Of a DNA stretch of 64,000 bases, positions 17,170 to 20,413 are shown one piece after another (positions within the stretch are counted from its first letter, which is position 1; every line of letters begins with the position of its first letter). Source of the stretch: an uncultured Candidatus Altimarinota bacterium (GTDB taxonomy: Bacteria > Patescibacteriota > Gracilibacteria > BD1-5 > UBA2023); contig CALHQS010000038.1 in assembly GCA_938036655.1 (NCBI GenBank), forward strand, positions 1,024 through 65,023, read 5' to 3'. The position numbers were made by a program, and so were the translations under genes. The notes beneath the pieces are model-generated. The model was not told the DNA's origin, made no database searches, and worked only from the letters and a program-made list of their open reading frames with translations.

Positions 17170-17706
17170 ATGAATGAAAATCCATGAGCATACAACGAAG
17201 CGAGAAATCGTCTGCGTGAGGAAAAGGAGCGTGAACGTAAAGTGCTCGAGAATTTGGTCGAGCGATTTGAAAAGGAAAAAACTCACATGCGAGCAGAGAA
17301 AAAATTTGATATTTTTGAACTCAAAAGTCGCATAGAAACACATCATTCACTCAATACACTTCGTTCTGATATTGATAAAGCGCTTCGTGAAGGGATTATT
17401 TCGCGAGAAATGTTTGACACACTCAAAAATAAAATTGAATTTATTGAACATTTGCCGGAAAAAAATATTCTCACAAAACAATCGGAAAAAGCATTTTTTG
17501 ATGACGAAGATTTGCCTTTTGGAAAGACTGAGATTACGAAATTTTTGGAAAAAAAGAAAATTGGTGAAAATATTTTGGTGGATATTGGTGGGTTTTTCTA
17601 TGGATTCGTGGTGCAGGGTGGTGCGATTTTCGTTATTTTGCTCTGGAAAATCCTTTTGGATATTATTTTTCTACCACGCGATATTTTAAAAGAATTACAA
17701 AAATAA
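17170..17706 (+). CDS. hypothetical coiled-coil protein with a C-terminal TM segment (178 aa, 1 TGA)
   Basis: ATG at 17170 is in frame with track ORF 17242-17706 across TGA 17185-17187. Confidence 0.5.
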
Positions 17707-17707
17707 T

Positions 17708-18415
17708 ATGCAACGATTTTTTATTAATCGCCCATTACGGGAAATAGAAATTTTTGACGATGAAATATTTCATCAAATTACGAGGGTTCTTCGAATGAAA
17801 AAAGGTGATCAAATTATACTTTTTTGTGGAGATGGAATTGAATATCTGTACGAATTGACCAATTTTTCAAAAAAATCGGTGGAATGTGTCCAACAGAAAA
17901 AAATTGAACCGATGGATCGTGAGGCTCGCAAAAATATTACGCTCTATCAGTCTTTACCGAATAAAATAGAAAAACTTGAATGGATTGTTCAGAAAAATAC
18001 GGAGCTTGGTGTGCGGAAAATTATTTTTTTCCGATCTGATCGTTCGCAAAAGTTATTTCTTTCTGATTCTAAAAAAGAACGAATCAAAGCAATTTCTCGC
18101 GAAGCATTGGAACAATGTGGTGGACTTTTTCCGGTAGAAATTATTTTTTCTGATGAAAACCTAGGATCGATTTTAAAAAACAAGAATCCAGACGAAAAAA
18201 GAATATTTCTCCATACAGAATGACAAAAAACGCAACTCAATGAACTTGTGAATGAAGAAAAATTTGGAATTTTTATCGGGCCAGAAGGTGGATGGTCAGA
18301 CTCAGAAATTCAAAAAATGAACGAAAATAATTTAATAATTGTTCATTTATGATGAAGAATTCTGAGAACAGAAACCGCGGGTATGTGTATGGTTTTTGGC
18401 CTCAATAATATCTAA
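17708..18415 (+). CDS. rsmE: 16S rRNA (uracil1498-N3)-methyltransferase RsmE, table 25
   Basis: It starts MQRFFI. It has the SPOUT C-terminal motif GPEGGWS...HL-G-G-RILRTETA, where the two Gly are consecutive TGA codons (18350-18355). Confidence 0.85.
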
Positions 18416-18450
18416 AACACAATATATTGTGTTTTTATTTTTCTCTTACT
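18415..18450 (+). terminator. intrinsic terminator of rsmE
   Basis: AAAACACAATAT/ATATTGTGTTTT palindrome followed by TATTTTTC. Confidence 0.65.
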
Positions 18451-18675
18451 CCGATAGTAAAAATTTTACTTGTATAATTGCTCAAAAAACTTAAAAAATA
18501 ACGATTTTAAGAGAAGAATATGAGTACAGAAAATATACAGATACAAAAATTTTATACAAAAATCGTTTAATAACTGTCCGTTTTTTATATAAATATATTT
18601 TCCCTTACCAAAGCCAAAAATTGAGAATATCCTCTATATTTTGCGATTTTTTCATCAAAAAGCAAGACTAAAAGG

Positions 18676-18704
18676 TTGCAGCATTTTCGAAAAACTGATA
18701 TACT
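18676..18704 (+). promoter_or_regulatory. sigma-70-type promoter TTGCAG-17-TATACT of the ORF-less transcription unit
   Basis: Hexamers and the 17-nt spacer were read directly from the sequence. Confidence 0.5.
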
Positions 18705-18708
18705 GCTT

Positions 18709-19145
18709 GTGTCTTCTGGAGAACAGAAGGACACCTTAACAAAACCTGACTTGCTAATCATAGGATCCTTGACTCACAAGATCATCCTGTTTGTAAAAAC
18801 AAAAATTTATTTTGCCAATAATTATACCAATACAAAAGAACAAATAATAATTATACCAAAAGCAAATACAACGGAATGAGAGTCTATACTTTTTTTCTTT
18901 TAAAAAAGGAAGCGAAAAAGTTTAGATTCTCACTCCAACCAAAGGATTGAAACTTCCTTTTCAAAAAAGATTCGAAAAGCCAGTTAGGTCATTGCTTCGG
19001 CAATGCGAGCGTGAGAACTCAAAACCCTCGTGAATTGTGTCGTCTGACCTCTATTATAATGCCATAGATGCATTCGAGTGTCCCACAATCACTTATTATT
19101 TGAACTTCGGTTGTACCAACAATCCGAAGTTTTTTTGTTTTTCAA
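18709..19145 (+). ncRNA. candidate structured non-coding RNA of about 430 nt, class unknown
   Basis: A promoter lies upstream and a strong terminator (ACTTCGG-13 nt-CCGAAGT + T7) at 19104-19145. There is no ORF under table 11 or table 25. Helices seen: a 5' hairpin at 18709-18734 (10 bp), a long irregular hairpin at 18873-18936, and a CATTGC-TTCG-GCAATG tetraloop hairpin at 18990-19005. Confidence 0.45.
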
Positions 19146-19235
19146 AAATGGGCAATTATAAAAGTTTTTCACAAAAATGTAAAAAACTTGTTAAAAAGTA
19201 CAATTATAGTTCGATAATTGTCCGAAAATAATATT

Positions 19236-19694
19236 TTATTCGTGATGATAATTACTTCACTTCATAATTTCAAAACTTCGATAAATCTGCTCCATCAAAA
19301 TTAAAAAAGCAAGTGAATGAGGAAAAATCATATCTGAAAATTTGAGAAGTTGCACTCAATATTTTTCTTGAATTTTTTCAACATCAAAACCATAACTTCC
19401 ACCAATCACAAAAATTATATTCTCGCTTGTATTGTATAATTTTTGTATACAATTTGAAAAATTTTTCGTACTCATATGTTCGCCACGCTCATCACAGAGA
19501 AAGATTTTACCAGGAATTTTGGCAAGTTTTTCAAGAATTTTTTCAGTTTCTTTATTTTTGATAAAAATACTTTCTGTATGCTTAATTGATTTCAATGTAT
19601 GAATGGAAATCTGCTTTCCGAGGCGTTTTTCGTATTCTTTGATAGCATCACTAAAATGTTTGTGTCCGTCAGAAATGTGAATTATATGAATCAT
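19236..19694 (-). CDS. rlmH: 23S rRNA (pseudouridine1915-N3)-methyltransferase RlmH, table 25
   Basis: Track ORF 19356-19694 extends across 2 TGAs to TAA at 19236. It has VIGGSYGF and a C-terminal EQIYRSFEIMK-G-SNYHHE like the RlmH EQ(L/I)YRA..I..G.PYH tail. Confidence 0.85.
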
Positions 19695-19798: not shown

Positions 19799-19874
19799 GC
19801 CACCTTAGCTCAGTTGGTAGAGCATCGGTTTTGTAAACCGGCGGTCATCAGTTCAAGTCTGATAGGTGGCTCCA
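19799..19874 (+). tRNA. tRNA-Thr (anticodon UGU), CCA encoded
   Basis: Acceptor GCCACCT/AGGTGGC, anticodon stem TCGGT/ACCGG with loop TTTGTAA, T loop TTCAAGT. Confidence 0.9.
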
Positions 19875-19966
19875 CTTATTTGGGTTTTAGAAGTTTGGAA
19901 TATTAGATTGAAAAATCTTAAATCTAAAATTCGAAAAGTCTAAAACTTTTTTCTTTTCATTTTCCT

Positions 19967-20051
19967 GGGTCGGTTCCAGAGCGGTCAAATGGGGAGGACT
20001 GTAAATCCTTTGGCTTCGCCTTCGGGGGTTCGAATCCCTCCCGGCCCACCA
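19967..20051 (+). tRNA. tRNA-Tyr (anticodon GUA), long variable arm, CCA encoded
   Basis: It aligns by eye to bacterial tRNA-Tyr: GGGTCGG..CCAGAGCGGTCAAAT..loop CTGTAAA..variable arm TTGGCTTCGCCTTC..GGGGGTTCGAATCCCTC. Confidence 0.9.
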
Positions 20052-20064
20052 CTTTTACATCTAT

Positions 20065-20141
20065 GGGTGATTAGCTCAGTTGGCGAGAGCATCTGCCTTA
20101 CAAGCAGGGGGTCGGGGGTTCGAATCCCTCATCACCCACCA
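20065..20141 (+). tRNA. tRNA-Val (anticodon UAC), CCA encoded
   Basis: Acceptor GGGTGAT/ATCACCC, anticodon stem TCTGC/GCAGG with loop CTTACAA. Confidence 0.9.
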
Positions 20142-20145
20142 TATT

Positions 20146-20170
20146 GGTAACCTTTTGGGTTATTTTTTGT
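20146..20170 (+). terminator. terminator after tRNA-Val
   Basis: TAACC-TTTTG-GGTTA followed by TTTTTTGTTT. Confidence 0.55.
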
Positions 20171-20189
20171 TTAAAGGCATCAAAAAAAT

Positions 20190-20217
20190 TTGCTTTTGAT
20201 GAAAAAATTTATATAAT
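20190..20217 (+). promoter_or_regulatory. promoter TTGCTT-16-TATAAT of the tRNA Arg-Leu operon
   Basis: Read directly. It lies about 27 nt upstream of tRNA-Arg. Confidence 0.55.
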
Positions 20218-20244
20218 CGGCTCGGTTTTGAATTTTCAAAATTT

Positions 20245-20320
20245 GCACCCATAGCTCAATTGGAAGAGTATCGGTCTTCGAAACCGGCGGTTGTAGGTTC
20301 GAACCCTACTGGGTGCACCA
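20245..20320 (+). tRNA. tRNA-Arg (anticodon UCG), CCA encoded
   Basis: Acceptor GCACCCA/TGGGTGC, anticodon stem TCGGT/ACCGG with loop CTTCGAA (positions 34-36 = TCG). Confidence 0.85.
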
Positions 20321-20329
20321 CAGATATTT

Positions 20330-20413
20330 GCTCGGGTGGTGGAATGGTAGACACGTACGCTTGAGGTGCGTATGCCTAACGGTGTGGGGGTTCAAGTCCC
20401 CCCTCGAGCACCA
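20330..20413 (+). tRNA. tRNA-Leu (anticodon GAG), long variable arm, CCA encoded
   Basis: It aligns by eye to bacterial tRNA-Leu: GCTCGGGTGGTGGAATGGTAGACAC, anticodon stem TACGC/GCGTA with loop TTGAGGT, and T arm GGGGGTTCAAGTCCCCC. Confidence 0.85.

Follow-up and report, generated by a model that had tools for sequence, protein, structure and literature searches.

Large, intricately folded bacterial RNAs are rare, and those with known function are core machines such as the RNA of ribonuclease P (RNase P), transfer-messenger RNA (tmRNA) and the RNA of the signal recognition particle (SRP). Other RNAs such as OLE, ROOL, GOLLD and the raiA motif RNA are restricted to particular lineages; they span several hundred nucleotides (nt), possess many covarying helices as well as tertiary contacts, and are stand-alone non-coding genes that were first seen as conserved "empty" intergenic regions. 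Some of them form multimers or bind membrane proteins. Gracilibacteria are largely uncultured, have small genomes and an altered genetic code, and what is said of their biology is mostly inferred from protein genes. Here, we analysed a stretch of 64,000 nt (hereafter the window; contig CALHQS010000038.1 of assembly GCA_938036655.1) from an uncultured Candidatus Altimarinota bacterium of this lineage, in which an initial annotation, made from the letters alone, had read the gap between rsmE and the convergent rlmH as a structured RNA of about 430 nt without an open reading frame (ORF) and with its own promoter and terminator. Conservation, covariation and the lack of a matching known family all bear out this core reading, and very probably the gap encodes a structured RNA of ~428 nt, stable and acting in trans, which forms an undescribed family located beside rsmE in Gracilibacteria using genetic code 25.

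Of the traits listed above for OLE, ROOL, GOLLD and raiA, those of size class, covarying helices, tertiary contacts, lineage restriction and gene type recur in this RNA, which is shorter than OLE, ROOL and GOLLD. It differs from them in its host lineage and in its fixed site next to rsmE, as opposed to phage or mobile contexts, and no copies of it were found in phage contigs. Furthermore, none of the models for OLE, ROOL, GOLLD, raiA, HEARO or other large Rfam RNAs matched the locus.

Results

In all contigs encoding RsmE relatives, an unannotated gap was found at the equivalent place, and in a relative with ~65% RsmE identity the gap DNA was 75% identical over ~820 bases. With an initial profile of three sequences, nhmmer detected the RNA region in all rsmE loci fetched; nhmmer and covariance-model matches together comprise ~33 distinct loci. 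Scanning a single genome for each species with an exact pattern returned 21 matches, of which two were chance occurrences in Colwellia and 19 were the RNA, in carriers labelled Gracilibacteria, Patescibacteria or 'Peribacteria', and a second pattern gave 28 matches, 10 of them metagenome contigs with the RNA. As such scans yield positives only, three RsmE relatives were fetched irrespective of the RNA, and all three contained it (3/3), including variants that violate the search patterns. Wherever a locus covers the upstream gene, this is rsmE in the same orientation as the RNA; rlmH is convergent on the 3' side in most, and an in-frame TGA was present in rsmE or rlmH of each of the 13 carrier loci checked. 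The RNA is apparently universal in code-25 Gracilibacteria, always just downstream of rsmE, and occurs in a single copy within the window.

With a GC content of 30%, and with an identity to distant relatives (44-56%) that is not above that of rsmE (56-60%), the locus might be taken for a decaying pseudogene or a neutral spacer, in which helices arise by chance in AT-rich DNA. However, an identity no higher than that of rsmE is expected when helices covary, and the region is retained across lineages whose RsmE proteins are only 42-50% identical, with 73 alignment columns being invariant (in part imposed by the search patterns). Its plus strand (18705-19145) folds at -114.9 kcal/mol, with z = -8.6 relative to shuffles. 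When 25 distinct sequences were folded jointly by RNAalifold, 61 pairs were obtained, 43 of them with compensatory changes; adding three outer pairs of the 5' hairpin H1 and three pairs of hairpin H8 (Table 1) gave the 67 pairs that were counted. Standard pairs occupy 94.0% of the cells of these 67 pairs, versus 77.3% in shuffled controls (0 of 500 as high) and 40-47% in slid ones, and the covariation score reaches 0.537 versus 0.217 (shuffled) and at most 0.125 (slid). Changes on both sides were seen in 45 of the 67 pairs. Covariation this far above both controls refutes decay or neutrality for practical purposes, leaving it next to no probability, and the absence of conservation and covariation that, according to the initial annotation, would have signalled a pseudogene is the opposite of what the ~33 loci display.

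The 3' third was aligned poorly by MAFFT, and a covariance model was therefore built from one clade only (13 sequences). This 3'-domain model recovers the other clades, and the window (18991-19136) at 36 bits (E = 7e-8). In the model-fitted alignment, which leans toward structure by construction, all 31 pairs exhibit compensatory changes (31/31) and 97.1% of cells are paired, as compared to 35-45% when slid. A blind search for further covarying column pairs was swamped by clade-specific substitutions, and only the stacked pairing of the H3 and H8 loops survived inspection. In sum, covariation supports the ten helices of the model, with H1 conserved in sequence and not through covariation.

In this model, the RNA starts with the 5' hairpin H1 (GNRA-type loop), followed by the long-range helix H2, which closes a domain of four hairpins (H3-H6) including a G-poor unpaired linker; the 3' domain consists of H7, H8, the long H9 and the terminator hairpin H10. 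A 4-base-pair (bp) kissing contact between the loops of H3 and H8 joins the two domains.

Table 1. Features of the RNA locus in window coordinates
Feature	Position	Strand	Description
RNA gene	18709-19136	+	~428 nt; start inferred at 18709-18711, end within the T-run
Promoter	18676-18704	+	TTGCAG 18676-18681 (-35-like), 17-nt spacer, TATACT 18699-18704
H1, 5' hairpin	18709-18734	+	loop GAGAA in the window, GAAA tetraloop in most relatives
J1/2, unpaired joiner	18735-18744	+	CUUAACAAAA; family UUAACAARA; invariant block in the alignment, partly imposed by the search pattern
H2, 5' strand	18745-18755	+	CCUGACUUGCU; long-range, pairs with 18978-18988
H3, two-part hairpin	18761-18789	+	loop ACUCA 18772-18776; compensatory changes in 6/10 pairs
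Kissing loop, 4 bp	18773-18776 with 19012-19015	+	CUCA (H3) with UGAG (H8); complementary in 25/25
Linker	18790-18872	+	G-poor, A/C-rich, with AUAC repeats; near-invariant AAUACAAAAGAACAAAU at 18829-18845
H5, long hairpin	18873-18936	+	counted part 18880-18900 with 18909-18929
H6, hairpin	18941-18960	+	AAAGGA...UCCUUU; loop type YUCGNWANU
H2, 3' strand	18978-18988	+	AGCCAGUUAGG; pairs with 18745-18755
H7, hairpin	18990-19005	+	UUCG in the window; stem length and sequence variable; compensatory changes in 6/6 pairs
H8, hairpin	19007-19020	+	3-bp stem GAG/CUC, loop CGUGAGAA; GC/AU/UA covariation
H9, three-part hairpin	19030-19092	+	a 19030-19039/19084-19092, b 19046-19051/19076-19082, c 19058-19074
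H10, intrinsic terminator	19102-19136	+	stem 19102-19114/19119-19132, bulged; T-run 19130-19136
Alternative helix	alignment columns 303-321 with ~367-392		in L006, L013, L028, L021, L043, L017, L025, L026; far above chance; absent in the window's clade
Conserved 60-nt block	18520-18579		~125-185 nt upstream of the -10 of the RNA; core AAATGGTTnAATAAnTG; several ATAC repeats
Palindrome	18416-18433		AACACAATATATTGTGTT; overlaps the final bases of rsmE; family pattern ACACnAnATATnGTGT
rsmE	17708-18417	+	in-frame TGA read through
rlmH	19694-19237	-	in-frame TGA read through; convergent to rsmE

The stem of H1 is nearly invariant, with 97.7% of cells paired and zero two-sided changes, whereas H2 has 99.2% of cells paired and three compensatory pairs (AU/GC/CG, CG/AU/UA and CG/UA). 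The counted part of H5 comprises 19 pairs, 16 of which carry compensatory changes (93.9% paired); its outer part, reaching to 18873 and 18936, was read from the single sequence and lies outside the pair counts. Among the 25 relatives, single-sequence folding recovered H6 in 22, its stem occurring in eight or more distinct sequences, and its loop looks T-loop-like. H7 is more variable, its stems differing in length and its loops being UUCG, UUUG, UUUU, GCAA or others. The topology of H9 is the same in nearly all 25 single-sequence folds, and the hairpin covaries within clade C and, in the model-fitted alignment, across clades. For the kissing loop, two independent compensatory events were observed: 22 sequences have CUCA:UGAG, L020 has CUUA:UAAG, and L017 and L025 have UUCA:UGAA. 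The linker (18790-18879 as measured) consists of 50% A and 9% G, with 4.1 AUAC per RNA versus 0.94 expected, and in relatives AAUACAAAAGAACAAAU is displayed in the loop of a further hairpin, H4, whose stem is only partly kept in the window as judged by eye. As for the joiner, the relative L062, which was found via its RsmE protein, has the divergent version TTAAAAAAT.

Several of these helices had already been recognised in the initial annotation, where the 5' hairpin, the 64-nt hairpin and CATTGC-TTCG-GCAATG were placed exactly as we find H1, H5 and H7, and the covariation analysis that it called for gave the result described above. Its long-range pairing of AGGTCA (18986) with TGACCT (19045), on the other hand, is present but does not exceed chance level (duplex -5.0 kcal/mol, z = +0.7) and competes with three covarying helices; the conserved long-range helix is H2 instead.

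As to orientation, many G-U pairs, the promoter and the T-run assign the RNA to the plus strand. The minus strand was considered as well and rejected, for its fold is weaker (z = -4.9 vs -8.6), many pairs of the plus strand are G-U, and the promoter-like sequence on the minus strand at 19183-19155 is unconserved.

All 4227 models of Rfam 15 were searched. At the gathering score, tRNAs were the only matches in the 64-kb window; at E<=10, the 1.1 kb of 18300-19400 yielded nothing but microRNA- and snoRNA-like matches, attributable to chance, at the palindrome of H5 (the 64-nt hairpin); and beyond chance matches, nothing was found in the RNA of relatives, neither at E<=5 (nine loci) nor at the gathering score (146 kb of loci). 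ARAGORN found no tmRNA, standard or permuted, and literature searches did not return a description of such an RNA. By these searches and the comparisons below, the RNA belongs to no described family and its novelty is at the family level. The initial annotation, which had looked in vain for the signatures of RNase P RNA, tmRNA and canonical SRP RNA and had left open a confident match to a known family, is in line with these results.

Nevertheless, a very diverged version of one of the universal housekeeping RNAs (RNase P RNA, tmRNA, SRP RNA or 6S RNA) has to be considered. Its size of ~430 nt and a strong stand-alone promoter and terminator would fit, as would the setting among the translation genes rsmE, rlmH, a tRNA cluster, L31 and SecY. 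None of these four RNAs was seen in canonical form, either in the 64-kb window or in the loci of relatives (146 kb), which adds little weight as all of these sequences cover the same neighbourhood. RNase P RNAs in the candidate phyla radiation are diverged and often fall below Rfam cut-offs (PMC8172020). However, the same paper reports that RNase P RNA was recovered from every circular genome, two Gracilibacteria included, once the thresholds were lowered (PMC8172020); it is therefore unlikely that such an RNA is hidden at this locus, and here even permissive searches of the window (E<=10, 1.1 kb) and of nine relatives (E<=5) gave no match to a housekeeping model.

The structural comparison leads in the same direction. 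Like RNase P RNA, which is of similar size, our RNA has a 5' hairpin, a purine-rich joiner and a long-range helix closing a multi-hairpin domain, an arrangement loosely reminiscent of P3-J3/4-P4, in addition to a GNRA-type loop and possibly T-loop-like loops. In contrast, the conserved P4 sequences of RNase P RNA (GGAAAGUCC ... ACAGAA-CCGGCUUA) are absent from both sequence and alignment as read by us, and the long-range helix is instead CCUGACUNNNN/NNNNAGUURGG, without the conserved residues of P4. Furthermore, the ends form local hairpins, the 3' one being the terminator, and hence neither a P1 helix (or P1/P2 end pairing) nor an acceptor stem; there is no nested P5/P7 architecture, and 150 nt of additional structure follow the long-range helix. 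With tmRNA, the RNA shares a similar size, a location among translation genes and a long-range helix around an unstructured A-rich stretch and hairpins, but it lacks a tRNA-like domain with acceptor stem, T-arm and 3' CCA, pairing of the 5' and 3' ends, and a conserved tag frame.

In SRP RNA, the loop of helix 8 is conserved, and the domain IV hairpin is characterised by a conserved GNRA tetraloop and conserved internal loops. H7 is the sole candidate for an SRP-like hairpin, and it has no constant loop or stem length, so that the "loosely SRP-like" arrangement perceived in the initial annotation around its UUCG hairpin fails; Rfam matches to SRP RNA (4.5S or large) were likewise missing. The 6S RNA, which is rod-shaped, measures ~180-200 nt and has a large bubble at its centre, also differs from a 428-nt RNA with a multi-hairpin domain plus a 3' domain, and its Rfam model gave no match either. 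Altogether, we regard a diverged housekeeping RNA as highly unlikely. Readings of sub-regions by eye as tRNA-like, T-arm-like, SRP-like or mimicking 16S rRNA were also tried and rejected, yielding nothing beyond a 7-base identity, UAACAAG.

The promoter is of the extended -10 type, TGaTATACT (18696-18704), with TG at 18696-18697, and its -35 hexamer agrees with the consensus at 3/6 positions only. A simple consensus scan called neither this promoter nor the terminator, the stem of which is bulged, and the case for both thus rests on conservation. The pattern T(T/C)GC...TGnTATACT stands at a constant distance from the RNA in 20 of 20 aligned relatives, and also in L059, L060 and L062. Similarly, a hairpin with T-run occurs at the corresponding place in every relative, and H10 has compensatory changes in 12 of 12 pairs; its apex GUACCAAC bears a further UACCAA motif, found at that site in 21 of 25 sequences. 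Both elements lie where the initial annotation had seen them, a TTGCAG-17-TATACT promoter and a terminator ~430 nt downstream. The RNA is thereby furnished with a promoter and an intrinsic terminator of its own, both kept in relatives, as expected from an independent gene.

This bears on whether the region might act in cis, either as a long 3' untranslated region (UTR) of rsmE or as a buffer or terminator region for convergent transcription of rsmE and rlmH. Such a role would agree with the RNA always following rsmE in the same orientation where the upstream gene is covered, with the RNA terminator abutting the rlmH stop in most relatives, and with conserved elements between rsmE and the RNA. 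However, the conserved extended -10 directly precedes the RNA in all relatives, most of which have a separate hairpin and T-run right after rsmE, and conservation is lacking over the ~110 nt that separate the upstream block from the promoter. Moreover, ten covarying helices and a kissing loop far exceed what termination needs, and a cis element has an even slimmer chance than the diverged housekeeping RNA.

Two conserved elements precede the promoter. The palindrome at the end of rsmE is conserved in sequence in all relatives, including those with 45% RsmE identity, and may bind a protein or represent a hairpin retained in the 3' UTR. A T-run follows it in the window, where it thus resembles the terminator of rsmE, whereas most relatives have a distinct hairpin with T-run beyond it. 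The 60-nt block has the family consensus TGTATACAGATACTGCTCACATACACATTATTTATACAAAAATGGTTCAATAACTG, and its ATAC repeats resemble those of the RNA linker. It can be read as a mini-ORF of 16-17 codons, but the start varies (ATG, GTG, CTG, ACG, TTG or CCG), and since the start codon is not conserved the block is probably non-coding; it might represent an upstream activating site of the RNA promoter. A search for copies of its motif elsewhere in the window revealed nothing meaningful.

Since public annotations place proteins over the RNA, the locus might alternatively encode a small protein, as annotators assumed. The calls comprise 156 residues in strain GN02-873 (L001, 4969-5439), 161 in L060 (4057-4542), 67 in L006 (7046-7249), 65 in L062 (4122-4319) and, on the minus strand, 157 in L004 (3205-3678). 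A conserved AUG, replaced by GUG in the oral clade, occupies nt 5-7, the ORF that it opens reaches at least 60 codons in 17 of 25 sequences, and by our own count stop triplets are about twofold rarer than base composition predicts. Nevertheless, no reading frame is conserved across the 25 sequences of the family: owing to indels of 1 and 2 nt in H1 the frame differs among clades, the length of the ORF opened by the conserved AUG varies from 9 to 143 codons (9 in four relatives, 22 in another), and the predicted peptides diverge via frameshifts. Even the 156-residue frame is broken in the window despite 94% DNA identity to GN02-873. Substitutions lack three-base periodicity, gap lengths are mostly not multiples of three, and the conservation is accounted for by paired compensatory changes. 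The database proteins are thus most likely false, and a protein-coding locus is barely credible. This agrees with the initial annotation, which saw no credible ORF between rsmE and rlmH under table 11 or 25: under table 11 the gap holds short ORFs only, and under code 25 only stop-to-stop stretches without a conserved start.

The flanks are rsmE and the convergent rlmH, as the initial annotation had described, spaced by ~820 bases. Both genes are full-length only when TGA is decoded as glycine, i.e. the host decodes this codon. The window RsmE shares 93-94% identity with proteins from oral Candidatus Gracilibacteria, strain GN02-873 among them. Immediately 5' of rsmE in all relatives lies a gene for a 178-residue protein (17170-17706 in the window) with a hydrophobic C-terminal segment and no Pfam match. 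Five tRNA genes (Thr, Tyr, Val, Arg and Leu) are clustered 3' of rlmH (19799-20413), with L31 and SecY beyond. The tRNA cluster follows rlmH in relatives too, and the block they share consists of the hypothetical protein, rsmE, the RNA, rlmH and the tRNAs, so that genes for stable RNAs and for translation surround the RNA in a conserved arrangement.

The segment 19150-19232, which separates the terminator of the RNA from the stop codon of rlmH, is conserved in the oral clade only, and partly in L003; in most relatives the terminator abuts the stop codon. On the minus strand, a sigma-70-like promoter, TTTACA-17-TATAAT (19183-19155, 11/12 match), is aimed into the 3' end of the RNA; in L003 its -10 part is deleted.

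Discussion

Our analysis suggests that the gap next to rsmE harbours a candidate housekeeping RNA, transcription of which would start at the extended -10 promoter and end at the intrinsic terminator, and we infer that it is transcribed and abundant. How might it act? Tentatively, we prefer the hypothesis that its folded core serves as a scaffold binding protein at several sites. The scaffold would display about five copies of a UAC[C/A][C/A]A motif in the linker, the H4 loop and the terminator loop, by which several copies of a protein specific for single-stranded RNA would be bound or sequestered, the RNA thereby constituting the RNA part of a lineage-specific housekeeping ribonucleoprotein.

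Such an arrangement is reminiscent of the sponge RNAs CrcZ (~400 nt, several A-rich motifs) and CsrB/RsmZ, in which a short motif likewise recurs about five times in unpaired or loop contexts of a ~400-nt RNA. The motif of our RNA, however, is neither AANAANAA nor GGA, and the long-range helix and the kissing loop present here are lacking in the sponge RNAs, for which Hfq, Crc or CsrA are partners, none of them known here. One relative does match CrcZ, but at 18.5 bits against a cut-off of 95, which falls short of homology.

Several points weigh against the proposed RNA and its function as a scaffold. First, the ends and the abundance of the RNA are deduced from sequence features, and the invariance of TGTCTTCT, TTAACAA and ACCTGACT was partly imposed by the search patterns. 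The model-fitted alignment of the 3' domain inflates its pair counts, and the enrichment of UAC[C/A][C/A]A (5.0 per RNA versus 0.86 expected, with fixed sites in the loop of H4, immediately 3' of H4 and in the terminator loop) was measured against mononucleotide shuffles of an A-rich sequence in related, non-independent sequences. Second, no candidate for the partner protein is encoded nearby, the 178-residue neighbour lacking a Pfam match. Third, the known sponge RNAs need no elaborate tertiary fold, and the scaffold and the motif array may therefore serve different ends.

A fourth point is that in 8 of 13 relatives of one clade an alternative helix rivals H2, which a static model leaves unexplained. 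Here, the 3' strand of H2 and the preceding joiner are complementary over 12-18 bp to a stretch after H8 (duplex -17 to -29 kcal/mol, z -2.7 to -10), and whole-RNA folding favours this helix, which is mutually exclusive with H2 and the base of H9. As the covariation of H2 is not followed by the alternative partner, the two helices may each be genuine, with the RNA possibly alternating between two states in those lineages. The counterpart of this helix in the window is the AGGTCA/TGACCT pairing of the initial annotation, which does not rise above chance.

Two other modes of action were weighed. An action linked to the ribosome or to the maturation of rRNA seems unlikely, and a catalytic RNA very unlikely. 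In a broader proposal, which we consider unlikely, the RNA represents a new housekeeping class confined to code-25 Gracilibacteria; its three-dimensional fold would be a precise one, and it would act on the translation apparatus or be catalytic, as opposed to being a passive sponge. In its favour, the linkage to rsmE is invariable and usually extends to rlmH. RsmE and RlmH both modify the decoding centre, methylating U1498 of 16S and pseudouridine 1915 of 23S rRNA. Furthermore, the invariant unpaired joiner of the family, UUAACAAG (UUAACAAA in the window), contains UAACAAG, the seven bases found at 16S rRNA 1498-1504 in E. coli, including U1498, the methylation target of RsmE. This match was noticed post hoc, is weak and could be chance. 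The 12-18-bp alternative helix of one clade could free the joiner, which would turn the RNA into a two-state switch. A scan of the window for targets complementary to the H4 loop gave five matches with up to three mismatches, one being the locus itself, versus 1.8 expected, none of them convincing.

Conclusions

No described RNA family matches the RNA beside rsmE, which would make it new at the family level. For the Gracilibacteria, it would represent a conserved and probably essential component that protein-centred annotation has overlooked or mis-called as hypothetical proteins. With 428 nt, a long-range helix and a kissing loop, it would offer a compact target for work on RNA structure and function, and it may allow these organisms to be recognised specifically in metagenomes of oral and environmental origin.

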